Positions 18,630 to 40,352 of a stretch of DNA of 63,968 nt are shown one piece after another. Location of the stretch: the IMG/VR virus record IMGVR_UViG_3300017707_001880, positions 1 to 63,968 of that record, one strand, 5' to 3'. The notes under the pieces were generated by a model. That model was not told the origin of the DNA. It worked only from the letters and a program-made list of their open reading frames with translations, and did not search any database. Source of the DNA: a virus (Duplodnaviria; Caudoviricetes). Each line of letters opens with the position of its first letter. Positions within the stretch are counted from its first letter, which is position 1. Position numbers and translations under genes: made by a program.

Positions 18630-19472
18630 TCATTGCGTGACGAGGGCCGACCAGAAGCCATACTCGACGCGGCCATCTCCGCCAGCCAAGCCAGCGGCAT
18701 TCGCGCCGCCGCCTCCACCGCCCGCCCCTGGCGCGGGAGCTACGGACGCAGGGGTGTTCACGGCCCCGCCGTCACCGCCACCGCCAAAGATTGAGTTGCC
18801 GCCGGCACCACCGCCGCCGCTTCCGCCGCCGACGCCACGAGGAAATGGATAACTGGCCCAGCTACCGCCAACCACGCCAGCCGCGCCGGCTGTGCTGCCC
18901 CCGCCGGCGCCGCCGGGACCCGAGATAAACATACCGCCGGACAAGCTGCCGTTTGCCCCCGACGCCCCGGCCGCACCGCCCGTGCCTGGAGTTAGGCCGC
19001 CACCAGTGCCGCCCGTTCCACCCACCCCCGCCGCACCCGCAGCGCCACCCGAGCCGCCGGTCAGACGAATGGATGCCCCGTTGGCACCGCCCGCGATCGT
19101 CAGATTGCCCCCCGCGCCGCCCGCGACGCCTGCGCCGCCAGATGTTCCGGCCGCGTCGATCGTGAAGGTGAGGGACCCACCCGGGGTGACGGCCATGGAG
19201 AAGTTGACCATCTGCTGACCAGCGCCGCCCCCGCCAGCGCCCGCCGTTGAGGCCGACGCCTGCCCGCCACCGCCACCGCCACCAGGAGCCGCAGCGCGAA
19301 GAATGGTGACCGCCGACACATCAGCCGGGACGGTATCCACCCGGGACGCCGTGACGGTGCGAACGACCCACCGGCCGTTGGGGGAAGACGACACGACCTG
19401 CGCAGCGACCGGCGCCGACGCCAGGACGGTGGATGCCATTAGCGCAGCCAGGAAAGCCTTGCGCGTGATCAT
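18630..19472 (-). CDS. Glycine-rich fibre-like protein with Tat/Sec-like signal peptide
   Basis: MITRKAFLAALMASTVLASAPVAA|QVVSS, then GGGGGGG/GAGG-rich segments. Confidence 0.75.
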   Translation of the reverse strand: MITRKAFLAALMASTVLASAPVAAQVVSSSPNGRWVVRTVTASRVDTVPADVSAVTILRAAAPGGGGGGGQASASTAGAGGGGAGQQMVNFSMAVTPGGSLTFTIDAAGTSGGAGVAGGAGGNLTIAGGANGASIRLTGGSGGAAGAAGVGGTGGTGGGLTPGTGGAAGASGANGSLSGGMFISGPGGAGGGSTAGAAGVVGGSWASYPFPRGVGGGSGGGGAGGNSIFGGGGDGGAVNTPASVAPAPGAGGGGGGANAAGLAGGDGRVEYGFWSALVTQ

Positions 19473-20050
19473 TGCACCGCTCCGCTGATGAAGGCCGTTA
19501 TCACACCGGTAACCTTGCTGAAACACGTTGTAGCAGAGGTGACGACCGCCGTAATCCCTGTCGAGTAACGTTGTGCCGGGCCCGGGGCGTAGTTGATGGA
19601 GGCCGCGCCATTGGCTGGCAGGGGCACGCAGGCCAGGGGCGTGATGGCCCCGTCCGCCGGGGCTGATGTGGCGTTGACGATGGCCAGGAAGCCGGCTGTC
19701 CCCGTCAGGTTCGTGGCGTAGGCCGAGTAGAGGTTCCCGGCCGAGGCCTTGAGCACCTGGGTGGCAGCACCAGCGCCTGTAACCACCGACGTGATGGCCA
19801 CGCCAGCGGCGGAGGATGGCGCCACGGCAATCCCGTTTGTCACCCCCGGTGTCGTCTGGTTGATAGACACCGAGCCAATGATTGCGGTGCCGGCCGCAAT
19901 GGTGACCGGGCATGGCTGGCCCGGCTGCACAGGAACGAACGCGCCCCCATCAGTCTGCCGGCAATAGAGTTGGGCTTGCTGAGCAGCGGCGTTACCGCCC
20001 CACCCCACCGCGGCCAGGGCAAGCAGCCCGACCAAACCTGCACGCTTCAT
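19469..20050 (-). CDS. Beta-rich structural-like protein with Sec signal peptide
   Basis: MKRAGLVGLLALAAVGWGGNAAA|QQAQ; four Cys in two pairs. Confidence 0.75.
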   Translation of the reverse strand: MKRAGLVGLLALAAVGWGGNAAAQQAQLYCRQTDGGAFVPVQPGQPCPVTIAAGTAIIGSVSINQTTPGVTNGIAVAPSSAAGVAITSVVTGAGAATQVLKASAGNLYSAYATNLTGTAGFLAIVNATSAPADGAITPLACVPLPANGAASINYAPGPAQRYSTGITAVVTSATTCFSKVTGVITAFISGAVQ

Positions 20051-20064
20051 GCTCCGTCTCCTGT

Positions 20065-23000
20065 TCATGGCGGTTGCCCTTCGCGACGCGCCCGGTCCAT
20101 GGTCTGCCGTCTCATCCCACGCATCATGCGGATGATAGCCGCATCTTCTTCGGTAGGCTCCTGCGTGGTCATCTTGGCGTTCTGCCGCCGCAGGGTGTCC
20201 AGTTCCTTCTTGGCCCCACGGTAGGCGCCCAGGATCCTGAAGCCCTCGTCCAGATCGCCCTTCCCCAGCTTCTTGATGATATCGTCGGCAGCATCGGGCC
20301 GCCCGCTCTTGAGCAGGAAGTCCACCTCATTGATGGCCGTGTTGATGCGCCGCGCCTCGCCCATGTAGGCGCGCTCTTTCATGCGGTCGTCGACCTTGCC
20401 CACGACGCGGCCCACGAACGGCATGCGCGATGCGGAGGGTTCGTCGCTGGTGAAGTAGTCCAGGGTGCGATCAGCCGCGCGCCCCAAGCCCCCGGTCATG
20501 GACGTGAAGATGTGCCGCAGCGCGTCGGGGGAGACATCGACCGCTCCCTTCTCCGCATAGTCCCCGCCGGTCAAAGCGTTGATTCCGCGAGACATGGCCT
20601 TCCAAAGTTCCGGCGTGTTCTGAAAGTGGCGCCGGTGCGCCGGCTCGGGGGCGTCACCACGCGGCCCGCGGTCCCCGCTCTTGTAGACCGGAGCGCCCGT
20701 GAAGCTGACATTATCCCATAGTTGCGCGACCGGCCGAAACACGGAAGGCGCAACCAACTGAGCGGCCGAACCAACGGAACCGAGGGGGTTGAACGCGTCT
20801 AGCATGGCAGCCGCCATCGACACGCCGTACTCGATCGGCTTCTTGTGGGATTTGCCCGAGATCGCCTCTGACGTCAGGCGCCCGACGTTGAACACCGCGT
20901 TCAGGCCGAGCGGGTATGGCACCTTCACATAGGTCCCGTCTGACTTGGCGAAGATGGCGTTGTGCGACTTCTCGAAATCGGGGATCGCCTCATAGTCATC
21001 CCCCATCACCTCGCGGTTCACCATGTCGAGCAGGAAGCCCGTCACTGCCATGCCGCCCAGGACCGCGCGCGCCTTGGGGCTTTTGGCCGCGGCTTTCAGG
21101 ATCGTGGCCGCCCCCTGCACGCTGGCGTTGAAGAACATGAACCACGCGTTGATGGCCGCCGACGCGTTGCCCTTACGGTTGAAGTTGACGGTGATGTTCT
21201 TGGCGATGCTGGCCGCGCGCTGCTGGGTCAGGCCTTGCTTGCGGGCCGCCTGGAATGCCGCCAACCGGACGCTGTTCTCGACGATGGAGTTGTAGTCATC
21301 GACCGCTTGCAGGACGGTGCGCGCGATGCGGCGCGGGTCACCCGCCCCCTGTTCCATCTTGGCAACCTCGGCGCGCAGGTTGTCCATGCGCTTGTCCGAC
21401 GTCTCGTACATGTCCATGTGGCCGGTCGTTCCGCCGGCCGCGTCCATCTCCTTGGCGTAGCGCGCCCATTCGGAGTTGCCGTCGCCGCGATACAGGTCCC
21501 GCAGCCCGCGCATGGCTTTCGGGACGTTGGAAATGACGTCCCGCCGCCCCTCTTTCAGACCGGTCCCAAACCAGTTGAATTGCGCCCCCCCTACGTCGCG
21601 AATGAAGTTGGTCACCCAGAACTCCGGGTTCCAGCGCGTAAGAAGGGACGCCATAAATCTGGCCGGCAAAGCAATAATTTTGGTAAAAAGACTGATCTGA
21701 CCAGCGTCCATGTTCTTCATGGCCCGGGCGACCTCGACGGCGCGCTTGTTGCGCTCATCGAACACGATGAAGTGGTGCTTTCCGCCCTCCTTGTACATCA
21801 CCACGTTGTCGGCAAGCTGGTAGAGCGGGTCCGGGATTGTCTCGACCAGCCCCGTGTTCTTGTTGATCTGCCGAGTGGTCGGGACCTCATCGACCTTCCA
21901 GAACCCGTCCGCCGGATACTGCTTGGCCAAATCAGCCAGGGCCGTCGTGACCTTGTTCTTCTCCGCCCTGATCGCCGCCGTCTCTGCCTGCGCCACGATG
22001 TTGGCCAGGATGTTCTTGACCTCAAGCGTGGAACCCATCGACCGCTTGCTCTCGGGGCCGCGCACGTTGAAGCCCGAACCCTTGGGGGCTCCGTTGCCCT
22101 CAATGTCACGCTGCAAGGGGGCGTAGAACTGATACGCGTCCTCCCATGCCTTGATGGTGTCCGCCGTTTCCAGCCCCTCGGCCTTGATGACCTTACGGGT
22201 GTCCGCCGTCAGTTTGTCGACGTCCTTGGCGATGGACTCCAGGCGGTTCAGCTTCGACTCGGCCGCAAACGCCTGCATGGCCGCCGCCGCGTCCGCATCG
22301 CTCATCCCGGACAGGGCTTCGTTGTCCACCCGGTCCGGGTTGATTTCTTTCATCGCCTTGTTGCGCTCAGGCGCGTGCCGGGCGAGCAGGTAGCGGTCCA
22401 CGTCGTCGACCGTCACGCCCTCGCGATTCTTCGCAATCTTTTGAAGGATAGGTTCTACCCGTTTCTCATGCAGCGCCTTGACCCGAGCCGACACGCGCCC
22501 GTGGTAGTTTGTCTCCATTTCGTAGGCGTCCCGGCTTTCCGGGATGGGGCCATACAGGTCCGCGATGCGCTTCTGGACCTTTTTCAGGTCAATCTTGTTG
22601 TCCTGAAGGGCGCGGACGAGGCTGTCCACCATCGACGGGTCTTCAATCTCCCACGCCGAACGGGCCAGGCCGAGGTTCGGCTGGCGGGCGGGGCGACGAG
22701 AGAACAGCGTGCCTTCCTCTGGCGCCTTCGGAGCAAACAGCCCCTCATTCGGCCGAGCCTGCGGCACCCTGGGCTCCAGCCCCCCACGCCCGGTCTGATC
22801 CCGCGCAGCCTGCGCCTGGACGGCGGACGGCTCCATACCCGGCATGGCTTCCTGGCGGGGATCATTGCGGTAGGTCGGGACCGCGGCGCGCTGCTCGGGA
22901 TCGCGCCTCTCCCCACCGAACAGGTCGGGACCAGACGGCGGGGGCTTGGGCGGCCGGCGGGCATAGCGGGGATCGTTCGACATAAACGGGTTCTGGTCAT

Positions 23001-26000
23001 CCGGCGTCGCCCGCTGGAAGTCGCCGCGCTCGAACGCACCGAAGGTCTGCGCGGTGGCCCCGTCGCCCCAGATGCGCTTGAAGGCGTCCTTGATGCGCTG
23101 CCACAGCCCTCGGAAATGCCCGACGACCGACCGAGCCTTCTCGTCCTGGAGGAACTGGCGATCATAGAACCTATCAGTCAACGACTCCGCGAAGTATTCC
23201 GACCTGTCCGTGAACCTGTAGGAGTCTTCGTTCGCGGCGAACGAAAGCCGATTGCCGCCGGTCGGCAATTTCTCAAGTCTAACAGAAGACATCGCCTCCT
23301 GATTGCCGAGATTACGCGTGAGCCACGCATCCGCTTCCGCGCCTACAACCCGCCGGGTCAAACCGGACGGCTGATCGAACGGACGCGCCCAATCGTGCTC
23401 ACGCACCCATCTTTCCTTGGCGCGGACGAACTCGCGGCCGAGCGCCCGCCGCTGGTCGAGGGGGACCAGCCGTTCCATAGAGTGCCACAATTCATGGATC
23501 ATAGTTCTCGACATATCGCCGGATCGCAGCGCACTCTCGAATACCGTCACGATCCGATCAAAGGCATTGAACTGCCCTTTGACCTCTCGGGCATCTCCCG
23601 CCCGCACGCTCAGGCCAACGTCCCGAACCAAGTCTTCGCCAACGAACCGGATGAAATCGTCCACCTCCCGGATTTCGTCTGGATGAACGCGCGGCCCATT
23701 GCCTCTATCCGCCTCTGCCCGGCGCTTGTTTGCCTCAAGGTTCAGCCGGCTTATGATCGCCTCCGCGCCGCGACGACGAACGGGGCTTCCCGGCCGGCGG
23801 GCATACTGAGGCGACCCATCCGCCCTTCCCTTCCCGTCCCCCTTCACACGCCCCTGCATCACGGCACGGAACACGCCGTCCGCCGACCAAAAGCCTTGCC
23901 CACGAAGGCCGGAGCCAATCGCCTCCACCGCACGGTTCATGGCTTCGACGGCACGGGTGGTGATGGGTGGCTCTTGCCGCGCCCTGGCCAGCACTTCCTC
24001 CGCCACACGGGCGACGGCTTCCTCGCGCATCTGCTCTGGCGTGTAGCGCAGGTCGGCCAGCCCCTGGCGGTTTTCGCCCTGAGCCAGCCAGCGATCGGCG
24101 GCACGCAACAGTGCATTGCGCTGCGTCTCGGTCAGCACGCCCAACTGCGGGTCCATCAGCGCGTGCGTCACCTCATGGAACAGCTTGGTCGGGGCATCGG
24201 GCGCCGGCGTGTCCAGGGCATAGGTCACCAGGGACTTGGTATAGGACGCGTCCGCCGCGTTCCCCTCCGCGTCCACCAGCCGGTCGACCACCTTCAGGCC
24301 CACCGAGGACGGCAAGCCCGCCAGTCGCATCAGGCGCTGCATCACGACAGCCAGTTCCTGCCGAGCCCGGCCGGCTTCCGGCGACGGTGCGCCCTGCGCC
24401 CGCTGATCAGCCTGCCCTTTCTCCCGGGCAGAGAGCATGCCGCGGGCTTCGTTGTAGGCCTGCGTGCGCTCAACGTCTGATGCGCGCACGGCTTCGTAGA
24501 CCGCTTCCTCGGGGCGGGCGCCCTCGACCAGCAGCCGGGCCGCGTGCATTTCCTCATCGGGCGTCAGCTTGATGCCGGCTTCCTCAGCCGCAGCGCGGGC
24601 TTCGGCCGCCAGTTCCTCACCCCGGATGCGCTCACGATCAGCGGCACGCCCCTGCGCCCACTCGTTTGCCTCTGACGCGTACTCGGGCGGGTAGACCGGG
24701 CGGCCAGCATGTTCCTCGGCCAGGGCGTCGTAGAAGTCGGTGAGCGTGGCGTCGGGTGGCAGGTAGCCAGCCTCGACGGCAGCCTCGCGGGCCATGTCCG
24801 CCTTGGCGCCCTTCTTGTTCAGCAGCCGGCCAGCGCGCTGGTGATGCACCGTCTCCAGGCCGAGGGCCATCAGGTCCCCGTCCGGTCGCACACCGCCCTT
24901 GCTGATGAGGAAGTCGAACAGGCTCGGCGGTTTGGCCGGACGCGGCAGGTCGGCCATCGGCGGAGGCATGTCGCCAGGTTCGATCGGCTCCGGGAACACG
25001 GCATCCGGCGCAGGCGCCACGTCCTCGGCCGGTCGCCCCATCTCGGGAGGCAGCGCCTCCTGCATCGGGCCATCGGGCACGCCTTCGGGCAGCGCCTCGG
25101 GAGAAGGTAGTTGGCGCATTTGAGCCGCCATTTCGGGCGTGGCTTCAAAATGCACGGGAGGGGCAACCATGTCGGTCCCGGTGGTATCAAAAGACGGGAT
25201 CAACAGGGGGCTATCGTTGGGAATGTCGATGTAGTGGACCGCCCCGCCAGGGCTCTGGTCTGCATACCCCTGCGCATATTGTCGGCTCGGAGACAGCCAG
25301 CGCCCGCCCTCGCCGTCGTAGGGCAGTCCCCCGTGATACATACGGGTTGTGCCGGGGGGGCGTGGCGGCTCCACCGCCTCGGGTTCCGGCGTGATCCGCA
25401 TGGTCGGGATGTTGGGATCGAACTGAAGCGGGATCGTGCCCTGCGCTGGCGTTGACGGTTCGCCGCCAGGGACGTCAGGCGGAAGCCCGTCCACCGGCAC
25501 CGCCTCGGGGGCAATGGTCGGCTGCGCTTCGTCGGCCAGCCGCTCGATCTGATTCAAGCTGCGCCGGACTTCAGGAGACATCGCCTGCCCGAATTGCTCG
25601 CGGGCCACGCGGCCGGCTCCACGACCGGCCATGGCAGCGCCAGGAATCAACGCGCCGACTATGCCGCTGGACTTTGTGTTTGCCCACACGCCTTCGGTCA
25701 GAGACTGGTTAGGGTCAATTTCCTCGCGGATGATGAAATTCTCAGCAAGGGTGCCGAGGGCGCCGGCGCCGGCAAACTCCAGCCCAGAGCGCCCTATCTC
25801 GGCCACGGTCTGCACGAACTTGCCGCGCAGACGCTCCGGCATGTATTTCAGCACCCGCGAGAGCGGGAGCACGTTCAAGGCGACTTGGGCGGCGGCGTTC
25901 TTGGTCGCGATTTCCGCCGCCTGATCTTCCGTGGCGCCTTTTTCCAAAGCGCGCTCGCGGGTTGATGAGTAGGCCTGCCCCCACATGACCGCACTCATGC

Positions 26001-26604
26001 CGGCAATACCGCCGACCGGCCCCGCGGCCACCGCCCCGATGGCAGCGGCGGGCAGCGCCGGGACAAACGCCCCCAACATATTGGCGGCGCCGGTCAGGTC
26101 CCCCTCTTGCCGCGGGTCTACATAAACGCCCTTGCCATACTCGGCTATGGCGGCCCCCGTCTCCGTCATCCAGGGTGTGCCTTGCGTCAATGCGCTCTGC
26201 CACTCGGCCTGCATCTCGGCCTGCCGTTCAGGCGTGGCGCGACGGTATGCCGTCAGGACGCCGCGCTGCATCGGCGTCAATGCCTGGTATGCTGCGCTCT
26301 CGTCAGACGCCAGCGCCTCGACCGCGCGAAGCATCGCGTTCGCATAGCCCTTGTCTGCGGCCAAGTGCGTGCGCGACAAGCCCTCAATGCCCTGCCCCGT
26401 GCCGACGATCGCGCCTCGCACCAACGAGTTGCCCACGGCCGCCGGGAGGGACTGCTTGGGCATCAGGTCATCGAAGGACGGCATCTGCCACTCGGTCGCG
26501 GCATCAGCGGCATCAGCGGCAACGGGCGCGGCATCGGGCGCCGCACCTGCGTTCGGCAACAAGTCGTCAAACGACGGCATTTGCCAGGAAGTTGCGCCGC
26601 TCAT
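20065..26604 (-). CDS. Large polyvalent internal virion/ejection protein (ART-like, 2x HExxH, LPD38-like C-terminus)
   Basis: 2179 aa; MYHGG..WLSPSRQYAQGYA, FHEVTH, IHELWH, ITVNFNRKG...FMFFNASVQG, YVKVPYPLG. Confidence 0.85.
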   Translation of the reverse strand: MSGATSWQMPSFDDLLPNAGAAPDAAPVAADAADAATEWQMPSFDDLMPKQSLPAAVGNSLVRGAIVGTGQGIEGLSRTHLAADKGYANAMLRAVEALASDESAAYQALTPMQRGVLTAYRRATPERQAEMQAEWQSALTQGTPWMTETGAAIAEYGKGVYVDPRQEGDLTGAANMLGAFVPALPAAAIGAVAAGPVGGIAGMSAVMWGQAYSSTRERALEKGATEDQAAEIATKNAAAQVALNVLPLSRVLKYMPERLRGKFVQTVAEIGRSGLEFAGAGALGTLAENFIIREEIDPNQSLTEGVWANTKSSGIVGALIPGAAMAGRGAGRVAREQFGQAMSPEVRRSLNQIERLADEAQPTIAPEAVPVDGLPPDVPGGEPSTPAQGTIPLQFDPNIPTMRITPEPEAVEPPRPPGTTRMYHGGLPYDGEGGRWLSPSRQYAQGYADQSPGGAVHYIDIPNDSPLLIPSFDTTGTDMVAPPVHFEATPEMAAQMRQLPSPEALPEGVPDGPMQEALPPEMGRPAEDVAPAPDAVFPEPIEPGDMPPPMADLPRPAKPPSLFDFLISKGGVRPDGDLMALGLETVHHQRAGRLLNKKGAKADMAREAAVEAGYLPPDATLTDFYDALAEEHAGRPVYPPEYASEANEWAQGRAADRERIRGEELAAEARAAAEEAGIKLTPDEEMHAARLLVEGARPEEAVYEAVRASDVERTQAYNEARGMLSAREKGQADQRAQGAPSPEAGRARQELAVVMQRLMRLAGLPSSVGLKVVDRLVDAEGNAADASYTKSLVTYALDTPAPDAPTKLFHEVTHALMDPQLGVLTETQRNALLRAADRWLAQGENRQGLADLRYTPEQMREEAVARVAEEVLARARQEPPITTRAVEAMNRAVEAIGSGLRGQGFWSADGVFRAVMQGRVKGDGKGRADGSPQYARRPGSPVRRRGAEAIISRLNLEANKRRAEADRGNGPRVHPDEIREVDDFIRFVGEDLVRDVGLSVRAGDAREVKGQFNAFDRIVTVFESALRSGDMSRTMIHELWHSMERLVPLDQRRALGREFVRAKERWVREHDWARPFDQPSGLTRRVVGAEADAWLTRNLGNQEAMSSVRLEKLPTGGNRLSFAANEDSYRFTDRSEYFAESLTDRFYDRQFLQDEKARSVVGHFRGLWQRIKDAFKRIWGDGATAQTFGAFERGDFQRATPDDQNPFMSNDPRYARRPPKPPPSGPDLFGGERRDPEQRAAVPTYRNDPRQEAMPGMEPSAVQAQAARDQTGRGGLEPRVPQARPNEGLFAPKAPEEGTLFSRRPARQPNLGLARSAWEIEDPSMVDSLVRALQDNKIDLKKVQKRIADLYGPIPESRDAYEMETNYHGRVSARVKALHEKRVEPILQKIAKNREGVTVDDVDRYLLARHAPERNKAMKEINPDRVDNEALSGMSDADAAAAMQAFAAESKLNRLESIAKDVDKLTADTRKVIKAEGLETADTIKAWEDAYQFYAPLQRDIEGNGAPKGSGFNVRGPESKRSMGSTLEVKNILANIVAQAETAAIRAEKNKVTTALADLAKQYPADGFWKVDEVPTTRQINKNTGLVETIPDPLYQLADNVVMYKEGGKHHFIVFDERNKRAVEVARAMKNMDAGQISLFTKIIALPARFMASLLTRWNPEFWVTNFIRDVGGAQFNWFGTGLKEGRRDVISNVPKAMRGLRDLYRGDGNSEWARYAKEMDAAGGTTGHMDMYETSDKRMDNLRAEVAKMEQGAGDPRRIARTVLQAVDDYNSIVENSVRLAAFQAARKQGLTQQRAASIAKNITVNFNRKGNASAAINAWFMFFNASVQGAATILKAAAKSPKARAVLGGMAVTGFLLDMVNREVMGDDYEAIPDFEKSHNAIFAKSDGTYVKVPYPLGLNAVFNVGRLTSEAISGKSHKKPIEYGVSMAAAMLDAFNPLGSVGSAAQLVAPSVFRPVAQLWDNVSFTGAPVYKSGDRGPRGDAPEPAHRRHFQNTPELWKAMSRGINALTGGDYAEKGAVDVSPDALRHIFTSMTGGLGRAADRTLDYFTSDEPSASRMPFVGRVVGKVDDRMKERAYMGEARRINTAINEVDFLLKSGRPDAADDIIKKLGKGDLDEGFRILGAYRGAKKELDTLRRQNAKMTTQEPTEEDAAIIRMMRGMRRQTMDRARREGQPP

Positions 26605-29600: not shown

Positions 29601-29621
29601 CTGCGGGCTGCCGCCGGACAT
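26604..29621 (-). CDS. Ejection/pilot-like internal virion protein
   Basis: Q/A/G-rich; N-terminal YEAYPGQTVAGFSPDQ, GAWGGDR; located between tail genes and the giant protein. Confidence 0.75.
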   Translation of the reverse strand: MSGGSPQTTVSQNGPPQVFLDAYGRVVNRAEQVAATPYEAYPGQTVAGFSPDQMAAMNTVRGAQGISAPYINQAANYIDQSTGPLLNGVPQLSQNLLQGQVASSLQNLQQATGSGITDAASAGGRGIMDAASSFTPQSIAPWMSPYTESVVDATRRQFGNSNEQQRQGVVGNAISRGAWGGDRSAVAEAILAGEQQMAQAPVLAGLMDRGYQSGLGAAQNAAQLQTQGATAAGNLGFQGATNDAQQRQQAAAQLLGLFTGQQGLGFNANQAQANLAQQAGYGMAGLGREAQSSTLTGAQAMAGMGALQQEQAQRQLNVPYQQFMAAQQYPFQTTGWLSNITSGLGGSAGSTNTTTSPGPSGLSQVAGLGATALGAIGGTGGFGADGWLTNLFERGGGVPYAKGGEIDADYDWLPDADEPDLTLSIVPGADGMRVAGRRSGLGKTPNILQSTGTTSTTSGGPGPLGSILGLAGTVAGGIFGGPIGATLGGMGGRMVGNAFADGGDVPSVDMVAGTRPGSRIPYLNFGPPGQGLGSGVPQMASGELPILQQAMAGLGGNGGVDDYLAGQMRGASFAKPNFYVPPPPPVPAAASPVDPMDEMRAARQAILDWDRFNDNPEGGGSGAGESGGGGGAGGGGSDAADNMGGSDMGGYRAGGIVRRAEGGFIEDEEDMPLPPIPPEDGAPAEKRPGFMAAGNPWNALMYAGLGTMGGTSPNALTNIGRGAMVGLEQFGKERTSAEAIAARRANAAAMERYRAQMADIARLRLANQERKTDADILRTEAQTNKLIAAVGAAGSGGSRAKGTWAEAQRVGEDGQIIYGREWLPADGGDPRFVAGSLGRTGMTQQGLNDRAKVRADATRDWRVIQAGLQQQGVDLKTQALAQDAFFKGRGLDLKENEQEAKGTAATASTDKARDDWIARRLGQLNSQMPPFRGNAMEQAIKDYNSLPGRGDAPAPAPAAVAKPQPTPEQAAQAIRIAKKAVAGGFPKEEAIKRLRDSGVTVPDDF

Positions 29622-31107: not shown

Positions 31108-31770
31108 TCAGTTCACGAAGAACACGGACATGCCGTGCCCGAGCACATCGTTTGCCGCCCCGGTCGTCGGGCTCGCGCCCGTCACCTTCAGCACGATAGC
31201 GCCCGTCGTTACCTCGGTCCCGATCAACGGCACCGGCACCGGGAACGGCGTGCTGCCGGCCATGCCGAACCCGCTCCCGATCTGCGCCGACGCGCCGGTC
31301 CGGTTGAGCATCAGCCGCGCGTTCCACCCGACGTTGTTGTTCGTCAGCACGCCCGACGAGAACACCAGCGACGTCCCGAACCACAGCTTGACCGTCTTGT
31401 CGTTGCCGTTCGCCGCGAAGGACCCGAAGGCCTCGATCACGATGCCCTGGTTGTTCGCATCCAGGCACGACGCCGGCAGCGTGTAGGTGAACAGCGTGTC
31501 GTCCGTCAGGTCCGCCAGGTTCCCGATCCCGGCGGCAGAGCTCTGCTTCGACAGCGCGCCCATGGGCAGGAAAGTGGTCGAGGACGTGGCGCCGGCATTG
31601 ATCAGCGGCGGCGGCTTGAAGGTGTTGGTCCCGGTCCAGACGTTGTTCGAGGACGTCGAGATGTAGGAGGAACCCAGGCGGTCGTAGATGGCCCCAAGCT
31701 GGCGCAGGATGTTGGTCAACTGCACGTTGGTCTGATCCAGGCCCTCGACCTTCACGGACGGGAACATCAC
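31108..31770 (-). CDS. Tail-associated structural protein
   Basis: NVWTGTNTF fibre-like motif followed by a beta-rich domain. Confidence 0.65.
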   Translation of the reverse strand: MMFPSVKVEGLDQTNVQLTNILRQLGAIYDRLGSSYISTSSNNVWTGTNTFKPPPLINAGATSSTTFLPMGALSKQSSAAGIGNLADLTDDTLFTYTLPASCLDANNQGIVIEAFGSFAANGNDKTVKLWFGTSLVFSSGVLTNNNVGWNARLMLNRTGASAQIGSGFGMAGSTPFPVPVPLIGTEVTTGAIVLKVTGASPTTGAANDVLGHGMSVFFVN

Positions 31771-33782
31771 CGCCGGCCCTCCCTTTGAATCTCAGCCAGC
31801 GGTTTGCCATAGCGCCAGAAGGTGTTGAGCGTGGTGCATTGCACCTTGAACTGCATCACCCGGCCACGGGCACGCACGATGAAGTAGGGCGTCTCGGCCG
31901 TCACCGTGTAGGGCCCATAGGTGCGGACGGGATACCCCGCGCTCGGCACCAGCATGTCCGACACGTAGACCGTGATCTGCACCACCCCGCCTTCCGACAG
32001 CGTGAAGTCCGGCAGGATGCGCTTCAGGGTGACAAATTCCTCCCCCTCGCTCATCTGGAAGAAGCCGGTCAGGAACCAGCTATCCAGCGGGTCGCCGTCG
32101 AAGTCATACGACGTCTCAAACTGCTGGATCAGGTTGTTGTAGTCAGCCCCGACCGGCGTGCCGACCACGGACTGGTCCGCCCAGGCCGACAACATCAGGG
32201 ATCCCGAGCCGACATCCCATAGGTTCTCCAGCGAGTTCCATTTGACATAGGCGTTGCACACGCCCTCGCTGCCCTGCGTCGGATACCACCACGCAAATTC
32301 GGACATCGACGAGTTGACCGCACAGAACACGGCGTCCTGGTAGTTCTTGTCGATGTTGTTGAAGATGAAGTCATGCACCTCGCATGGCAGAGTCTGCACG
32401 CCGCCACCCCGGTAGACGAAGAACTCGTCCTGCGACATCCAGGCCACCAGGGAACCCAGGACGCCAACCGCTCGCGGGGCAAGCAGTCCGCTGTTCTCCC
32501 CGATCCGGTTGAAGCCGTAGATCAGCGGGAAGCCCACATAGGTCATCGACCACAGATCCAGGTCCGTCCAGATCAGCCCGGACAGCCCGTTCCACAGGCC
32601 GGACTGGATGCGGGAGCCCGAGGACAGCCGGAACGTGCCCGCCTGGTTGATGCTGGTCGCCGTCCAGTCGTTCAGGTCCGCGACGTCGCACCAGCCAATC
32701 AGCAGGTCGTCCTGCTCCAGGAGCGTGGCCGAGTAGATGCCCCACGCCACCGCCTGCTGCTGCGGCGCGGCGACGAACACGCCGTTCATGGCGGAGGGGG
32801 CGCCGGCCACCGGCGTGGCCACGTTCCCCAGGGCCACCGGCGGCGTCCATTCGTAGAGCGTGCCCTGCGCATAAGCCGCAATCAGGTTTTCGCCCCACAG
32901 GGCCAGCCACCAAGTAACGGGCACAACAGGCGAACCGGGCGTGCCAATCCCATAAGGGCCCGCACTGTAAGATCCCGAACCGTAAGACCCCGTCGTGGCA
33001 TCCCCGGCCGGCAGCACCAGGAGATATTCGATGCGGACGTCTCCGCCGTTCTCCTGCGCCGTGGCCGTGCTGGATGCCACCTCATCGTCCGCGATCGTAT
33101 AGAGCGGCCCCACCGCGACCGTGACCGGATAGTAGCCCTCGATGTCGATGCCGCCGACCGTCGTGGTGACGCCCACGATCAGGGCCTGGCCGTCGACGAA
33201 GGTGGCCGCACCCAGGGTGATTTCGACGATGTTGGACAGGTTCGTGGTGTCGAACGTCAGGACGTCTCCGCCCCCGACCACGCCCGCTATCGCTGGCGTT
33301 CCCACCTCAATGTCGTAGGTGCCAGTCCCCACGCTCACAATCTGGTAGAGACCCTGGAGCGTGATACCGTCCACATAAGCAATGTTCACAATATTGATCC
33401 ACTGCCCGACCGCCGGCGCGAACAAGCCGTCCGTGATCGTAACCGTGGTCGATGCAGCCACCGTCGTGAACGGCAACGTCAGGTCGCTGGTCGCTTCGAG
33501 AGGTTGGATCGGGTAAATCTCCCCGTCCTGGTAGACCTGAAGCAACTCAGTCGTGCCAATCCCGATGTATTGCCGCTGGCTCAGGTCAGCCCACGGTAGC
33601 AACGACCGGGCCGTGCCGATGAACTGCGAATTGGACAACCGCACACAGCCGCCGAGCTTCTGAATCTGGCCCATCTTGTGCCGGATCAGGTTCGACATAT
33701 TCACCCCGGCCCCGGTCTGGAGCGCGGTCGATTGCGTCGAGACGCCGGGCTTCAGCGCCAGGGAGAAGGGGATCAGGCTCAT
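31767..33782 (-). CDS. Podovirus tail nozzle/stabilisation protein (P22 gp10-like)
   Basis: LKPGVST...IQKLGG; WGENLIA; WCDVADLNDWTAT..NQAG; LIWTD; ILPDF; RARGRVMQF. Confidence 0.8.
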   Translation of the reverse strand: MSLIPFSLALKPGVSTQSTALQTGAGVNMSNLIRHKMGQIQKLGGCVRLSNSQFIGTARSLLPWADLSQRQYIGIGTTELLQVYQDGEIYPIQPLEATSDLTLPFTTVAASTTVTITDGLFAPAVGQWINIVNIAYVDGITLQGLYQIVSVGTGTYDIEVGTPAIAGVVGGGDVLTFDTTNLSNIVEITLGAATFVDGQALIVGVTTTVGGIDIEGYYPVTVAVGPLYTIADDEVASSTATAQENGGDVRIEYLLVLPAGDATTGSYGSGSYSAGPYGIGTPGSPVVPVTWWLALWGENLIAAYAQGTLYEWTPPVALGNVATPVAGAPSAMNGVFVAAPQQQAVAWGIYSATLLEQDDLLIGWCDVADLNDWTATSINQAGTFRLSSGSRIQSGLWNGLSGLIWTDLDLWSMTYVGFPLIYGFNRIGENSGLLAPRAVGVLGSLVAWMSQDEFFVYRGGGVQTLPCEVHDFIFNNIDKNYQDAVFCAVNSSMSEFAWWYPTQGSEGVCNAYVKWNSLENLWDVGSGSLMLSAWADQSVVGTPVGADYNNLIQQFETSYDFDGDPLDSWFLTGFFQMSEGEEFVTLKRILPDFTLSEGGVVQITVYVSDMLVPSAGYPVRTYGPYTVTAETPYFIVRARGRVMQFKVQCTTLNTFWRYGKPLAEIQREGRR

Positions 33783-34537
33783 GTGCGCGGCGGCGTGGCA
33801 AGCGGGGTCGGGTTGTTCGGCGTCCACCCGGTCCCCTGGCCGCGCATCCTCTGTTCCTGCGCAATCGCGGACGCCAGGAGCGTCTGATACTGATTCTCGT
33901 GCGACACCGACTGCTGCGGGTCGGAGGACTGCGGGCCGTAGTTCCGCTCCAACCACCCTGTCAGCCACACCATGATCGCGGTCTCCAGCAATTCCGGGTA
34001 GGTCGTAGACAGGTAGGTGGTCTGGTTCGCGTCGCTGATCGGTTCCGGCTGGAACAGGCCCGTGATTTCCGCCCGGTAGGCGGCGTCGGGCGTGGGACAG
34101 ATGACGATGGTGTGATCGTCCTTCATCGCCCACCAGCGCCCGCGATACTCGGCCGCCACAGGGGAGAGGGTGGTGGCCTCGGTCGGCCATACCGTGTCGA
34201 TGAAATCCAGCGACGTCAGTTGATACTGGTAGCGCGTGCCGGCCGCGGGCAGCGTCGCCGCCGGCATGATCAGCGCCACACCTTCAGGCACCAGCACCGG
34301 CAACGGCGTCATGGCCGACAGGTCGATGGTCCGGGATCCGCTCACCGTCGACAGGCTGCTGTTCTGCGTCCGGGCACACAGCGGCGTCATCTCGCGATAG
34401 ATGCGGTTCTCCGCGTAACTCGTGCCCTGGGGGAACAGAACCTCGAAATCAGGGGGCACGTCGGTGTAGGGCGACGGCGCCTGCGTCAGGGCGACGATTA
34501 CCGCCTCGCGGATGCTGTCCCAGGTCTGCGCAGCCAC
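33779..34537 (-). CDS. Tail adaptor/tubular protein
   Basis: AENRIYRE...PTPDAAY...TTYLSTTYPELL. Confidence 0.7.
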   Translation of the reverse strand: MAAQTWDSIREAVIVALTQAPSPYTDVPPDFEVLFPQGTSYAENRIYREMTPLCARTQNSSLSTVSGSRTIDLSAMTPLPVLVPEGVALIMPAATLPAAGTRYQYQLTSLDFIDTVWPTEATTLSPVAAEYRGRWWAMKDDHTIVICPTPDAAYRAEITGLFQPEPISDANQTTYLSTTYPELLETAIMVWLTGWLERNYGPQSSDPQQSVSHENQYQTLLASAIAQEQRMRGQGTGWTPNNPTPLATPPRT

Positions 34538-34538: not shown

Positions 34539-35237
34539 TCATACCTCCCACGCCCATAGCATCGTGCCGACCGCCAGGCTGACCGCCGAAATCACGCCAG
34601 CCCAGGGCGTGCCGTTGCCCTGCGCCGTTGCCCAGAACATAGCCTGTCCCGGACCCAGCATCACGTTCGCATCAGCGCCCCAGACCGCGGTGCCCGTGGC
34701 TATCGCGATCGGGGACACGAACGGGTTGTAGAGCGCAACCCAGGAGCGCGCCACATTCGCCGCCATCACCTGCTGCGACACCTGTGCCGTCGCGATCGTG
34801 ATGGACTGATCCACCTCAGTGCCGGGCGTGGCCACCCCAGACGCAACCGCGATCGCCGCCAGGGCTTCCGACTTCGTGGTGGGAATGCGCCCGATCGCCG
34901 GCGCACCCAGGACGTAGACCGAGAACCCCAGGTTGAACGGTGCCGCCGGCACATTGCCGCCCTCCAGCGCCGGGAGGGTTGTATAGACGTCCGGCCGGGG
35001 GTTGATGCGCGGGACGGGATCAGGCGGCAGAACGACGGTGCGGAACTGCTCCTGCGGCACGTCATTGCAGCTTGCGCACACCAGTATCCCGAGATCCTGC
35101 AAGGCTGGACCGGTCCACTGGAACTGGCGGCTGAGGTCGTTCAAGAGGTAGCGCACGCCACAACGGTCGCAGACTGCCTGAGCAGTGGGACGCTTTGGAT
35201 CGATCCGCGCGCGTCCCGTGCGGTTCCCGAACCCCAC
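34539..35237 (-). CDS. Zn-ribbon head-completion-like protein
   Basis: AVCDRCG...LVCASCND...PPDPVPRINPRP. Confidence 0.65.
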   Translation of the reverse strand: MGFGNRTGRARIDPKRPTAQAVCDRCGVRYLLNDLSRQFQWTGPALQDLGILVCASCNDVPQEQFRTVVLPPDPVPRINPRPDVYTTLPALEGGNVPAAPFNLGFSVYVLGAPAIGRIPTTKSEALAAIAVASGVATPGTEVDQSITIATAQVSQQVMAANVARSWVALYNPFVSPIAIATGTAVWGADANVMLGPGQAMFWATAQGNGTPWAGVISAVSLAVGTMLWAWEV

Positions 35238-35239: not shown

Positions 35240-35947
35240 TCAGAGCCGCCCGTACATGCCGACGTTCGGCGCCATCAGGGCGCTGCCCACTTCTTGATCA
35301 TTGGCCGTGAACTCGGACCATGCCTCGGCCGCATCCGCCTTGCGCGCGGCGACGACGCCGGGCTCGGAGAACTTGATGGCCAGCCGGTGCGCCAACGCGG
35401 CGCACAGTGCGTCATAAGCCCGGTAGGGAATGTCAGGGGTCTGGCCGCCGGTCGGGCTGGCATCCTCCATCCGCAGCAACCCGTACCACACCAGGATGTA
35501 GTCGGGCGCACCAGCGGACGGCACGGGATAGAGTGTGATCTGCGGCACGGGCAGGCGCTGGAACCAGTATTGCGTGGGAACGCCGAGCGTGCCCTTTGCG
35601 GGCATCATCGCATACTGCTGGCGCGTGAGCGTCATCATGTAGCGGTCGGTGTCATCCTGCGCCGATGAACCGCCCACCGTCCGGTAGGTCAGGTCCGTCA
35701 GCAATTCCATCTGCTGCGGCAGGGGGTAGGTCGCCGTGCCGGTCACCAGATTGATGGTGCCGCTGGTGACCTTCCACAAATTGATCCCGGCGTTTCCCCA
35801 TCGGGTCAACTCAAGGTTCAGGCTTTGATGGGCGCTGGTCAGGTGGGACCGGGTGAGCGCCGGTCCCCTGATTTGAATGCGGTCGAACGCCTCAGACAGA
35901 AGCTGGGCATTCGCCATCTCGAAGGCATAGGTGCCGGAAGTGGTCAT
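35240..35947 (-). CDS. Head-to-tail adaptor
   Basis: MTTSGTYAF...SLNLELTRWGNAGINLW...PTQYWFQR...LYPVP. Confidence 0.75.
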   Translation of the reverse strand: MTTSGTYAFEMANAQLLSEAFDRIQIRGPALTRSHLTSAHQSLNLELTRWGNAGINLWKVTSGTINLVTGTATYPLPQQMELLTDLTYRTVGGSSAQDDTDRYMMTLTRQQYAMMPAKGTLGVPTQYWFQRLPVPQITLYPVPSAGAPDYILVWYGLLRMEDASPTGGQTPDIPYRAYDALCAALAHRLAIKFSEPGVVAARKADAAEAWSEFTANDQEVGSALMAPNVGMYGRL

Positions 35948-36167: not shown

Positions 36168-36178
36168 GGGTCCGCTCC

Positions 36179-36871: not shown

Positions 36872-36872
36872 C

Positions 36873-39800
36873 TCACTGCACCCGGTAGAAGACGGTGCCG
36901 TTCAGGATCCAGGCCGCCGTCGCGTTTGCCGCCAATGTCGAAGCCGTCGCGCCCGCAATGGTGTAGCCCGAGGGCGCGGCGATTGTCAGAGCCGTGATCG
37001 TATTTGTCGACATGATCTGCACCCGCGATCCCTGCGGCACATTCCGAGGCAGCGTCACGGTGCCCGTGGCCAACACGCCGGCCGGGGTGAACGCCGTGAA
37101 CAACTGCTGATCGGGCACCGAGTAGGAGAACCCGTTGACGGGCGTGTTCACCGCCGAGGACGTCGGAGACGCCGTGGCGTTCAGGTCCAACGCTCCCATG
37201 ACCGCCGGCATCACCAACTGGTCGCCCAAAGTGCTGGGGTGATTGAAGCCGCCACCGCCCCACGCGCCACTTTCATTATCAAGCCCCCACAAGAGGCGGT
37301 CCGAGCCGTAGACCTGATAAAACGTGGGGGACTCTGGAGAGCCGGCTACCGCACGAGCAAGAGCGGTCGAACTGGTCGTCAGGAGGTAGCGGCTGAATGT
37401 GCCTCCCACCGTAATGGTCGGACGATGATAGCCGCCGAACTTAACCACACGCCCCGTCCAAACGGGCGAGCAGGAAAAGCAGTCTTCGTTGAAGATCGTG
37501 GCTTTCGATCCCTGCAAGTTGAAGCTGAGAGCGCCGTCGCAAATTGTTGAAGCGACAGTGCAGGTCGCCGCCACGCCTGTGTCAGTAGTCGGAACCGGCT
37601 CGTGGTAGAACTTCAGCGTGACCGCCTGGCTCACCAGCGCCGTGCTTACCGCCGGCGTGATGGTAATGGAGGTGCCGGCCGAATTGATGGCCGTGACGGT
37701 GCCGGTGTAGGTCGCGCCGGCAACGCCCGCGCCAGGAATGTCGATCGCGGCATTCACGAAGCCCATGTTCGTGCAGGCCGCGGCGCAGGTCACCGTCGTC
37801 GTGGCGACGGAGACCGTGGCTGCCGTATCAACGTCAAACGTCCGAACCCGCACGGTGTAGTTACCAGTGCCCGAAGCGTAGCCCAGACGAACGTGACCAC
37901 CGCTGTATGGTGTGGTCGCGCCAGTCTGGGTGCCGCTGGACTCAGGCGTCCCTGACGCGCCGTTACCCAAAGAAAAATCCACCGATACGACCGACGCCCA
38001 CCATGCCGCGATATTTGCCGCCGTGACCCGAAAACCGCCCATGGTCACCTGATAATCGTACACTGGCACTGGCCATCTGTAGGTGGCATCGCTGACGGAA
38101 ATGCCGTCGTTCGCGGTAGAGGGCGGCACAACGTAAGTTGCACGCTCGGGCGCCAAGAAGTCCTGCGACCAGCCGAGATTGGCGAACGAGCGCGCGCGGC
38201 CAATGTCGACCAGGCCGGGACAACCGCCGTTGGCCAGACGGTATTCACATGCCAACGACCAGGACCGAAGATAGCCCATGGAGTAGTCCTTGTTTGCCGT
38301 CGATTGCTGGCTGCTGGCCGTTGCCATGCCGGGCGGCCCCTCGGTCGCGATCAGGATGTCCGGGGTCTTCCCACACGCCGTCCGCCAACCGGTCCCCTGC
38401 ATCACGTTCATGGAATTGATGAACGAAGACCACAGCAGGCTCAAGCCGTCATTGTAGCCCAACTTGGCCACCACAACGTCGGGGCACGCCGCCTGCACGA
38501 ACGTGTACCATTGGTTTGATGTGGGAGTGTACCAGCCCGGGAACACCGCAGTGCTGCCCGATGGAATGCCGGCGCCATTGCCGTAGTTCGGACCGGCGGG
38601 GTCAAACGTCCCCCAAACCTGGCCGCCGATGGCAAAGTTGTCGCATACGACCGTTTTGCCCGGGTTCTGTTTGCGGAAGCCGTCGCACACATACTGCGGG
38701 ATCGTCATGCGCCCCATTGCACTGTAGTTCGACGTCATCTGGCTATCGCCAATGAAGGCCACCTTCAAGGTAGAACCGCTGTTGCTGGCTGTCCGCAAGT
38801 GCAGGCTTGGCACGATGGTGGAGTCAGCCAGGGGGGGCGCAACGCCAGCATTGCATCCACGCGATACCGGGCGCGCAAGAGACAGCGATGTGGGCAGATA
38901 TACGTCACCTTCGCCGCACCAGATCAGAGACGCGCCGTTAGATGTGATCTGGGCCAACGTGCCTGTGGCCAAAAAATAGGCCTTCTCGACGGGAACGTAG
39001 AGATACTGATAGCCGGCCGCCGCGGCGGCGTTCGTCATTGCGACCCAGGGTGCCGTGGAATCCGATCCCCAGGTCAGCCGCGTGTTGTTGTTCGTCTTCG
39101 CCCCGGCGTTGACCGCCCCCATCACGATATGGCTGGGATCCGTCACAGACGAAATCGTTGTCACCAAGGGAGCCGTCCCAGCGGAACCGCCGTCGATCAG
39201 TTCGATCGCCGCGCCAACGTCATTCGGTCCGAAAACCGCCTGCCCCCAATACGTCCAGCGCGAAGCCCCTGTCAGGGCGCATGTCGGCGCGTCTGACACC
39301 GTGGCAATGGCGCCCGTGCCGTTCACCGCCGTCACCTTGGTAACCAGGGTGTTCGCGCAGTTCGCCCCGGTGGCGTTCGGGATGGCGATGTCGGACAGGT
39401 AGCCGCCCGCATACCCCGGCTGCGTGTAGTCGTAGGACGCGAAGGTGTTGGCCGGCAGCGTCACCGTGGTCGCGCCCGCGGCAAAGGTCACCGGCGCGTA
39501 GATGGCGACGTTATAGGTCAGGCGCCGCTGGCTGGAGGGAGCCGACGCCGTGGCTGGGAACAGGCCCTGCGGCCCGATCACGACCTGCGCGCCCGCATCC
39601 ACATTCGTCGACGCCGCGGTGCCAATCACGATGGTCTGGGTGGCGCCCTCGGACGTGATGGACGTCACATCCGCCTGAAGGTCCGCACCGGCCGCGCCGC
39701 AGCCCGGCAGCTTGATGCGCTTGGTATTCGCCTGGTTCGCGCTGTTCGGGAACACGCCCGGCGTCATCGTCACCGTGGTCGAGCCGCTGGCGCAGACCAG

Positions 39801-40352
39801 CCTGGACGCAGTGATCGAGTAGGTGGTTTCGATTTGCACGTTCGGGGATGCGTTGCTGACTGTCACCTGCGCCGGCCGCCGCTTTGCGGGGCGCGCGTTG
39901 GCCGAGAAATCACCCAGGGTAAAATAGGCCGGCATCGTAGACAGCGCGATCCGACCATCAGCGCCGGGGGGGACACCGCCCGTGGCCGCCCAATAGTTGC
40001 CCGTGGTCGTGGGGCCGGCATCGGCCACGATGAAGCTCGATGCGCCCGGCGTCAGCGTGAAACTGCTCGCTTCATTGATCGCGCTGGCGGCCGGCGTGAT
40101 GACGACGTTGGCTGCCCCGATGTTCTGCACCTTGATGATGCAGCCTGAGATGAACTGGCCGTTTGCGCCGGCTTGCGGCAGAGCGGCCGCTACACCAGTG
40201 GCGTTGTCGAACAGGATGAGGCGCCGACCGTTCGGGTCACAGTCCTGATTGGTGAACGTGTAGGTCTGCCCGGTCTTCGTGCTGACCACCTGCGCCGACG
40301 CCGGGGCACACATTGCCGCCAGCGCCGTCACCGCATAGAGCCACTTCTTCAT
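36873..40352 (-). CDS. Fibre/spike-like protein with signal peptide, SGNH-hydrolase domain and 20 Cys
   Basis: MKKWLYAVTALAAMCAPASA|QVVS; FIGDSQ, AIGG, LGYND, GFNHP. Confidence 0.85.
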   Translation of the reverse strand: MKKWLYAVTALAAMCAPASAQVVSTKTGQTYTFTNQDCDPNGRRLILFDNATGVAAALPQAGANGQFISGCIIKVQNIGAANVVITPAASAINEASSFTLTPGASSFIVADAGPTTTGNYWAATGGVPPGADGRIALSTMPAYFTLGDFSANARPAKRRPAQVTVSNASPNVQIETTYSITASRLVCASGSTTVTMTPGVFPNSANQANTKRIKLPGCGAAGADLQADVTSITSEGATQTIVIGTAASTNVDAGAQVVIGPQGLFPATASAPSSQRRLTYNVAIYAPVTFAAGATTVTLPANTFASYDYTQPGYAGGYLSDIAIPNATGANCANTLVTKVTAVNGTGAIATVSDAPTCALTGASRWTYWGQAVFGPNDVGAAIELIDGGSAGTAPLVTTISSVTDPSHIVMGAVNAGAKTNNNTRLTWGSDSTAPWVAMTNAAAAAGYQYLYVPVEKAYFLATGTLAQITSNGASLIWCGEGDVYLPTSLSLARPVSRGCNAGVAPPLADSTIVPSLHLRTASNSGSTLKVAFIGDSQMTSNYSAMGRMTIPQYVCDGFRKQNPGKTVVCDNFAIGGQVWGTFDPAGPNYGNGAGIPSGSTAVFPGWYTPTSNQWYTFVQAACPDVVVAKLGYNDGLSLLWSSFINSMNVMQGTGWRTACGKTPDILIATEGPPGMATASSQQSTANKDYSMGYLRSWSLACEYRLANGGCPGLVDIGRARSFANLGWSQDFLAPERATYVVPPSTANDGISVSDATYRWPVPVYDYQVTMGGFRVTAANIAAWWASVVSVDFSLGNGASGTPESSGTQTGATTPYSGGHVRLGYASGTGNYTVRVRTFDVDTAATVSVATTTVTCAAACTNMGFVNAAIDIPGAGVAGATYTGTVTAINSAGTSITITPAVSTALVSQAVTLKFYHEPVPTTDTGVAATCTVASTICDGALSFNLQGSKATIFNEDCFSCSPVWTGRVVKFGGYHRPTITVGGTFSRYLLTTSSTALARAVAGSPESPTFYQVYGSDRLLWGLDNESGAWGGGGFNHPSTLGDQLVMPAVMGALDLNATASPTSSAVNTPVNGFSYSVPDQQLFTAFTPAGVLATGTVTLPRNVPQGSRVQIMSTNTITALTIAAPSGYTIAGATASTLAANATAAWILNGTVFYRVQ

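Follow-up and report, generated by a model that had tools for sequence, protein, structure and literature searches.

Predicted Sec-exported, cysteine-paired proteins with fibre-like modules, including a putative SGNH esterase, in the late operon of a probable alphaproteobacterial podovirus

In the textbook view, tailed-phage assembly is wholly cytoplasmic and virion proteins are free of disulfides. Phage late regions are also known to encode exported accessory proteins (Lom and Bor of lambda, Llp of T5, Cor of phi80 and N15, XepA of PBSX), with a secretion signal encoded among or beside the virion genes and an action on the envelope instead of in the particle; Lom, Bor, Llp and Cor are small lipoproteins or proteins of the outer membrane, in many cases under promoters of their own. 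SGNH domains within large fibre-like proteins occur in N4-like phages, in gp63.1 of Escherichia coli phage G7C (PDB 4qnl) and gp61 of Pectobacterium phage CB1, and G7C gp63.1 deacetylates the host surface polysaccharide (PMC6027278). The nearest published statements concern gp40 of Xanthomonas phage PBR31, described as a single-domain SGNH esterase of 215 amino acids (aa) with a signal peptide, encoded in the lysis block, proposed as a lysis aid and likened by its authors to tail-associated hydrolases (PMC10975493), and leader-bearing, function-unknown proteins from phages of Porphyromonas gingivalis, with cleavage before Gln (the "Q rule"), that were read as host-envelope modifiers (PMC10367356). 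Here we describe three leader-bearing late genes of the virus record IMGVR_UViG_3300017707_001880 (Duplodnaviria, Caudoviricetes). The DNA analysed, hereafter the window, is the whole IMG/VR record of 63,968 bases (~65% guanine plus cytosine [GC]), which has direct terminal repeats at its ends and is a complete 64-kb podovirus genome record from a soil-type phage. The genes in question are as follows.

36873-40352, minus strand: gene of the 1159-aa protein, which starts MKKWLYAVTALAAMCAPASA and then QVVS; 21 Cys, 1 in the leader and 20 in the mature part
40293-40352, minus strand: predicted leader of Sec type, formed by residues 1-20 of the 1159-aa protein (MKKWLYAVTALAAMCAPASA, with the cut before Gln), a low-confidence helix in the structure model
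19469-20050, minus strand: gene of the 193-aa protein, which starts MKRAGLVGLLALAAVGWGGNAAA and then QQAQ; leader residues 1-23; 4 Cys
18630-19472, minus strand: gene of the 280-aa glycine-rich protein, which starts MITRKAFLAALMASTVLASAPVAA and then QVVS; leader residues 1-24; 0 Cys

Coordinates, strand, N-termini and cysteine counts are exactly those given in a first-pass annotation of this DNA, which had proposed that the phage exports fibre-like proteins, folds them oxidatively and attaches them to particles, or alternatively secretes them as decoys or envelope-modifying effectors. Judged from their sequences and those of their relatives, the three proteins are very probably exported by Sec, cut before Gln, folded with disulfides in the periplasm and released at lysis. 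Like gp63.1 and gp61, the 1159-aa protein carries an SGNH domain within a large fibre-like chain, but it has a Sec leader, ten Cys pairs and a ~300-residue insertion, whereas gp63.1 and gp61 are leaderless, proven virion parts. It resembles PBR31 gp40, as far as the description of the latter goes, in being a phage SGNH esterase whose N-terminus bears a signal peptide, and differs from it in its length, its fibre modules and its position beside capsid genes. The Porphyromonas phage proteins belong to phages of another host phylum, and the passage that introduces them mentions neither fibre-like parts nor paired cysteines. Unlike Lom, Bor, Llp and Cor, the present proteins combine fibre or spike modules with translational linkage and have no lipobox. 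Our literature searches returned no paper on leader-bearing, cysteine-paired, fibre-like tailed-phage proteins or on a periplasmic maturation route for them. The present window contributes a leader-bearing, SGNH spike-like enzyme of a podovirus whose host is probably alphaproteobacterial, statistics of cysteine parity and co-variation for two large families, and a post-leader module that is found internally in leaderless relatives.

All three N-termini had the n/h/c layout of export leaders, with a positive n-region, an uncharged hydrophobic h-region and small residues at -3/-1. Leaders were called with our own crude heuristic, which passed 7 of the window's 424 open reading frames (ORFs) of 60 aa or more; the seven included two of the three leader-bearing genes, the third does not begin at the first start of its open frame, and the other five were short (63-148 aa). 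Homologues kept the signal peptides, as the first-pass annotation had led one to expect. Among 13 relatives of the 1159-aa protein retrieved by a word-index search, 12 had a leader-like start, down to 43% identity: P0002-P0010 carried the same leader (its Cys15 being Ala in P0009 and P0010), and P0011-P0013 (43-50% identical) lacked the first mature domain of ~100 residues and still began with a different leader-like N-terminus. The remaining relative, P0014 (31% identical), lacked the leader together with 19 of the 20 mature cysteine positions. For the 193-aa protein 515 relatives were found; among the best 120, from which one with a non-Met start was dropped, a leader was called in 112 of 119, and most of the other seven appeared by eye to have mis-called or truncated starts. 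Because the mature N-terminal parts of this family vary widely while the C-terminal 120 residues are conserved, the leader is retained independently of the sequence behind it. Among IMG/VR contigs, a leader start was seen at 52 of the 80 loci with the 193-aa domain (a few of them doubtful) and was lacking at ~28, mostly more distant. The 280-aa protein had three detectable relatives, two with a leader and one, from Bradyrhizobium, without. An exhaustive search with the 1159-aa protein gave 641 matches, of which 148 of the 150 listed plus P0013 (149 in all) were examined; dropping 8 with non-Met starts left 141, of which 66 were leader-bearing. In the 193-aa family 102 of the 119 proteins had, by a permissive pattern, a small-x-small site before Gln behind a hydrophobic stretch, as did 54 of these 141 matches of the 1159-aa protein.

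Other routes and signals were considered for the same N-termini. The first-pass annotation had called the TRKAFL segment of the 280-aa leader similar to a twin-arginine translocation (Tat) signal, and this suggestion had to be dropped: the segment has RK instead of RR, the S/T-R-R-x-F-L-K motif is not present, and the leaders of its relatives (P0135, P0136 and the neighbours in contigs L009 and L018) contain no RR, nor is the motif conserved. With a single arginine in TRKAFL and relatives lacking RR, the 280-aa protein would go by Sec. A lipoprotein assignment was likewise rejected, there being no lipobox and no Cys at +1 (the predicted sites are ASA, AAA and VAA, each before Q). The QVVS common to two of the mature ends was rejected as evidence of a docking motif, as relatives start with Q-V/M/I-V/S-x, merely the start of the first strand.

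Cysteine content followed the leader. In the 193-aa family the mature Cys count was even and non-zero in 109 of the 112 leader-bearing members and odd in 3. Among the matches of the 1159-aa protein, counts in the 66 leader-bearing proteins were even in 57, odd in 8 and zero in 1 (1.61% Cys), compared with 27 even, 32 odd and 16 zero in the 75 leaderless ones (0.90% Cys); leaderless relatives thus showed random parity, and Cys content was higher with a leader than without (Mann-Whitney p 6e-12). In a 14-sequence alignment of the 1159-aa protein, 9 of the 10 sequential Cys pairs were never split, and pairs were lost together in P0003 (C931 and C938) and in P0010 (C702 and C711), a co-variation that supports the earlier reading of the 20 mature cysteines as ten sequential pairs. 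In the 193-aa protein C141 and C176 were invariant in 75 sequences, and because both residues of one copy contact residue 113 of the next copy in the trimer model (see below), the two would lie close together. In the same genome, the 18 leaderless late proteins listed were poor in Cys: 29 among 7910 residues (0.37%), and not one in the capsid protein or in the 2179-aa and 1005-aa proteins. The three exported proteins, in mature form, have 24 Cys over 1565 residues. The export and oxidative folding proposed in the first-pass annotation gain strong support from the conserved leaders, from the parity and paired co-variation of the cysteines and from this contrast with the Cys-poor cytoplasmic virion proteins, and these predictions are regarded here as well supported.

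The 1159-aa protein was modelled with AlphaFold2 (AF2) from a 54-row alignment at a predicted local distance difference test score (pLDDT) of 88.2 and a predicted template modelling score (pTM) of 0.80. The modelled order is leader helix, N-terminal beta-sandwich, three beta domains, SGNH core interrupted by a large inserted beta domain, and C-terminal beta-sandwich knob, of which three parts recur below.

39963-40292, minus strand: N-terminal module, residues 21-130, with C38 and C71, common to many other phage proteins
37173-38810, minus strand: SGNH/GDSL esterase core, residues ~515-1060, split by a ~300-residue beta insertion, assigned from VIA-align and invariant motifs
36876-37235, minus strand: C-terminal knob module, residues 1040-1159, also found alone or C-terminally in many leaderless small phage proteins

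VIA-align placed the core closest to the acetyl-mannan esterase 6hh9_B (Z 17.1, root mean square deviation [rmsd] 2.8 A, 204 aligned residues) and also matched it to the G7C tail fibre gp63.1 (PDB 4qnl; Z 13.8, rmsd 3.3 A, 196 aligned residues); the best 50 entries listed all had Z of at least 12.8, and nearly all were SGNH/GDSL esterases or acetylesterases. In 14 sequences G535, D536 and S537 (block I, GDS), G632, N634 and D635 (block III, GxND) and H1038 (block V, His) were invariant, and G576 and G577 of block II nearly so. No Pfam or PHROG family was matched at the thresholds used, the large insertion splitting the SGNH domain, and a profile of the protein found nothing among PDB sequences at E up to 1. 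The exhaustive search revealed a modular protein whose N-terminal module and C-terminal knob each occur in many other proteins. By phmmer, the N-terminal module was present in 65 of 161 proteins searched; in 34 of 43 leader-bearing proteins no more than 9 residues separated its start from the predicted cleavage site, and in 16 of 18 leaderless ones 29 or more residues came before it. Several of the leaderless proteins begin, by eye, like ordinary tail fibres. The knob was found in 68 proteins (23 with a leader, 41 without, 4 dropped for a non-Met start). As modelled, the 1159-aa chain is a carbohydrate esterase of the SGNH type, built of several domains and bearing tailspike-like modules. The label "fibre-like" used in the first-pass annotation is supported by these shared modules and by the folds, which include the spike and baseplate matches given below and a jelly roll in the 193-aa protein.

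The AF2 model of the 193-aa protein (pLDDT 88.0) consists of the leader, a short stalk with a C30/C47 hairpin and a jelly-roll knob (residues 87-193) holding C141 and C176. Residues 79-193 aligned by VIA-align to the HHIV-2 spike, the C-terminal domain of chlamydial Pgp3, C1q, BclA and XepA at Z 6.0-6.7, which lies in the generic range for this fold, and the best BFVD match was an uncharacterised protein of Ralstonia phage RSK1 (E 1.4e-8). Three mature copies were modelled as a trimer with an intertwined stalk, scoring 0.62 against 0.00 for the best of 3 controls; runs agreed in at least 88% of contacts, with pLDDT of at least 82. The mark applied was reached by 20 of 30 proteins solved as one-chain pairs and by 1 of 23 solved as single chains, and the present run differs from that calibration set in using its own alignment and three copies. 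The model therefore presents the 193-aa protein as a putatively trimeric, C1q/TNF-like jelly-roll knob; it resembles C1q, BclA and the Pgp3 C-terminal domain in fold and modelled trimer, at generic Z, and unlike these it has no collagen-like stalk and shares no sequence relation with them. For the 280-aa protein a protein atlas pointed, with a score of 0.93, to phage clusters in which PF21722 (Gly_rich_2) is annotated on 18-57% of members; a Pfam scan for PF21722 gave no match for the protein itself, and two relatives matched at full length at non-significant values (E 1 and 5.5).

In four contigs, 2-5 genes near a member of the 193-aa family also had leader-like starts (L018:1301-6808, L046:2674-4847, L029:3794-4846 and L047:493-4444), some of them glycine- or cysteine-rich, such as a 1114-aa protein with 16 Cys; exported genes therefore appear to occur in clusters. 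A scan of genomes for the 193-aa family found one 3-kb contig, in an acidobacterial metagenome-assembled genome, which gave no clue to the host. Cultured relatives were not found when 50,697 phage records were searched by tblastn with the 1159-aa and 193-aa proteins and by megablast with 20 kb of the window.

The host is probably an alphaproteobacterium, and hence diderm, because the phage encodes a homologue of the cell-cycle regulator GcrA (7010-7483, minus strand; PF07750, E 8e-15), a family that to our knowledge is restricted to Alphaproteobacteria. Bradyrhizobium was the source name for some relatives in the 193-aa and 280-aa searches. The phage-borne GcrA also hints at manipulation of the host cell cycle. 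All three exported genes lie in a single long minus-strand late operon that runs from the terminase genes to two small membrane-protein genes, with a terminator-like site (17532-17518) downstream of the last gene.

53922-54566, minus strand: small terminase, at the start of the late operon
51763-53910, minus strand: large terminase
49317-51740, minus strand: SU10-type portal
48460-49320, minus strand: leaderless 286-aa fibre-like protein with 1 Cys (phrog_12796 "tail fiber protein", E 3.9e-6; weak match to the short tail fibre of PDB 8fqc, E 0.42)
42575-43483, minus strand: Mu gpT-like capsid protein
35240-35947, minus strand: SU10-type adaptor
31767-34190, minus strand: nozzle (PDB 8zkk gp16, E 2.7e-6)
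31108-31770, minus strand: leaderless 220-aa protein with 1 Cys, adjoining the nozzle gene; fibre-like by eye, no PHROG match, GC at third codon positions (GC3) 0.95
26604-29621, minus strand: 1005-aa ejection protein, no Cys
20065-26604, minus strand: 2179-aa protein with a C-terminal LPD38 domain (E 4.5e-38), with PHROG relatives 2800-3900 positions long
18120-18500, minus strand: 126-aa coiled-coil protein with a C-terminal membrane helix, the next operon gene after the 280-aa gene; family matches weak, by eye possibly part of a lysis cassette
17827-18123, minus strand: 98-aa protein with two hydrophobic helices, holin-like by eye, the last late-operon gene (phrog_9990, function unknown, E 2.8e-8)

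The 193-aa and 280-aa genes overlap, stop with start, in an ATGA, the former also abuts the gene of the 2179-aa protein, and a scan of the coding strand over 17827-20500 showed no promoter-like or terminator-like site among these terminal genes. For these reasons the 193-aa and 280-aa genes look like members of the operon and not separate cassettes, and a view of the terminal genes as independent morons found no support. Neither endolysin nor spanin was recognised by Pfam or PHROGs among the ~60 window ORFs scanned.

Several further features of the window lie apart from the exported genes. The 2179-aa and 1005-aa proteins jointly comprise 3184 residues with zero cysteines. A 394-aa HNH endonuclease gene (41634-42818, minus strand; PF13392, E 4e-29), whose start overlaps the end of the capsid gene, is placed between the gpT-like capsid gene and the gene for a 421-aa product, function unknown, whose GC3 is very high (40368-41633). 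That it splits the capsid gene was not supported, as the 302-aa capsid product reaches position 276 of 289 of the gpT profile with 81 residues to spare; the capsid gene thus looks complete, and the nuclease would be free-standing and homing-type. The large terminase (51763-53910, minus strand) matched terminase families in two blocks (residues 22-176 and 317-687), and with a weak Intein_splicing match at residues 281-316 (E 0.005) an intein or other insertion may be present. Weak anti-restriction candidates were seen at 1204-1824 (plus strand; ArdA-like, E 2e-4) and 16392-16772 (plus strand; Lar-like, E 1e-4), and the tail end of a resolvase domain lies beside the terminal repeat (14-328, plus strand). 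A 232-aa tail-module protein (34539-35237, minus strand) has a CxxC...CxxC pattern, possibly a zinc ribbon; its homologue adjoins leader-bearing genes in contigs L012 and L017, where a leader-bearing, jelly-roll-ended protein of 912-930 aa is inserted between homologues of 34539-35237 and 33779-34537.

How the three proteins act is a closer call than their export. The reading towards which we lean, tentatively and on a nearly balanced judgement, is that they are free, envelope- or receptor-directed proteins and not parts of the particle. The three genes would be translated together with the virion genes of the late operon, Sec would carry the products across the inner membrane of the diderm, probably alphaproteobacterial, host, and, with the leader removed before Gln, the mature chains would fold periplasmically, forming local disulfides (ten for the 1159-aa and two for the 193-aa protein), and leave the cell upon lysis. 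The 1159-aa protein, as a tailspike-derived SGNH esterase, would strip acyl groups from surface polysaccharide and so modify or destroy a receptor of the infected cell itself, of its debris or of cells nearby, and the trimeric C1q/TNF-like knob and the glycine-rich protein would bind envelope glycans as soluble, lectin-like partners. Freedom from the particle is favoured by the leader occupying the place where leaderless relatives carry other N-terminal sequence, by the two leaderless, Cys-poor fibre candidates that the genome keeps (48460-49320 and 31108-31770), and by a search for paralogy between the exported and the other late or virion proteins of the window, which gave nothing at E below 0.07. 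The exported late-region proteins cited at the outset (PBR31 gp40, the Q-rule proteins of Porphyromonas phages, and Lom, Bor, Llp and Cor) count on the same side. Several points weigh against it. The exported genes occupy positions of decoration or fibre genes and not a separate cassette, and the best Foldseek matches of the 1159-aa protein are virion parts (Klebsiella phage KP1 baseplate, E 2.7e-6; N-terminal hub of CBA120 TSP4, 2.9e-5; G7C gp63.1, 5.9e-5; N4 tail, 7.4e-5). A module conserved right behind the leader, with distal parts that vary, would also suit an adaptor for particle binding, and a deacetylating spike helps infection most when riding on the particle, as in G7C (PMC6027278). 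The Asp of the usual DxxH block is absent from the esterase core (G-F-N-H at 1035-1038), which may work with a Ser-His dyad or draw its acid from another position. In the cultured Cellulophaga phage phi10:1 (KC821618), gp091-gp094 have leader-like starts (e.g., MKKILLLLLFISASLSAQ and MRKLLLISLFLTSVLSFGQ) and are annotated in the record as structural "based on experimental MS/MS proteomics" (tandem mass spectrometry); like the present genes these are late genes of leader-bearing products, consecutive and in the tail-end region, with leaders ending before Gln or Thr, and they differ in their Bacteroidota host, in sharing no sequence relation and in having few cysteines (0-2).

Most of these points are equally arguments for virion parts matured in the periplasm, in which the exported and oxidised proteins would be docked on finished particles as the last assembly step, meeting them after the holin opens the inner membrane or after lysis; the role of spike or head fibre would fall to the esterase, that of small fibres or adhesins to the knob and the glycine-rich protein. 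We consider this possible, if somewhat doubtful. Late docking is physically possible, since, in vitro, P22 tailspikes attach to finished particles, as do the decoration proteins Dec, gpD, Hoc and Soc. The structural-operon positions (next after the capsid genes, and following those of the ejection proteins), the tailspike- and baseplate-like fold matches with the gp63.1-like SGNH domain, the modelled trimer with its intertwined stalk, and the jelly-roll family that fills the slot after the capsid gene in other contigs, in leader-bearing and leaderless forms, all point the same way, as does phi10:1; but the Cellulophaga proteins come from a phage of another host phylum, and particle mass spectrometry can pick up contaminants. 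Docking is further disfavoured by the position of the leader and the leaderless fibre candidates already mentioned, by an unfavourable dilution at lysis, by the lack of any identified docking partner or anchor for the exported proteins, and by our literature searches, which returned no published case of such a route. A role in lysis, in which the exported proteins (chiefly the pair of 193 and 280 aa) would weaken the outer envelope from the periplasm by acting on the outer membrane, lipopolysaccharide or exopolysaccharide, as spanins and esterases do elsewhere, seems improbable. It fits the two small proteins better than the 1159-aa protein, whose gene lies 17 kb from the two small membrane-protein genes that the pair directly precedes, and it draws on the missing endolysin and spanin matches in the genes scanned and on the exported XepA of PBSX, encoded beside prophage lysis genes and among the jelly-roll matches (Z 6.3, rmsd 3.8 A, 90 residues). 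That Z is within the generic jelly-roll range, however, the 193-aa family lies at many structural-module positions in other contigs and not beside lysis genes, and a lectin-like trimer has no obvious lytic chemistry; the lysis-block position of PBR31 gp40, a signal-peptide SGNH esterase, speaks for such a role (PMC10975493). Least probable, and very much so, is that nothing is exported, the proteins folding in the cytoplasm as tailed-phage parts normally do and the leader-like segment serving as an assembly or membrane-tethering feature: the n/h/c layout and the small-x-small site before Gln are conserved across hundreds of relatives with differing mature starts, the even-cysteine bias is linked to leader presence, the pairs co-vary, and the cytoplasmic late proteins of the same genome are Cys-poor. 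In the first-pass interpretation, then, export, oxidative folding and fibre-like character stood, Tat did not, and the secreted effectors or decoys offered there as an alternative are at least as likely as particle attachment.

Returning to the free, envelope- or receptor-directed proteins that we tentatively prefer, their existence would mean that a large class of secreted lectins and receptor-modifying enzymes deployed by phages has gone unrecognised, with effects on superinfection, on the loss of progeny to debris and on the surfaces of neighbouring cells. Here and in hundreds of uncultured relatives, proteins assembled from fibre and spike parts carry export signals and a statistical disulfide signature. 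Were the proteins instead to join the particle, a compartment-crossing assembly step, so far undescribed, would be implied; some tailed phages could then finish their particles outside the cytoplasm, with Sec-sent, Dsb-cross-linked spikes, knobs or adhesins snapping onto otherwise complete particles, a proposal we hold with some doubt, and soil phages would gain disulfide-hardened host-recognition parts. The 193-aa family, small, abundant and modelled as a trimer, offers an easy test object. On either reading, export is overlooked where annotation pipelines call genes of this kind "tail fiber" or "hypothetical".

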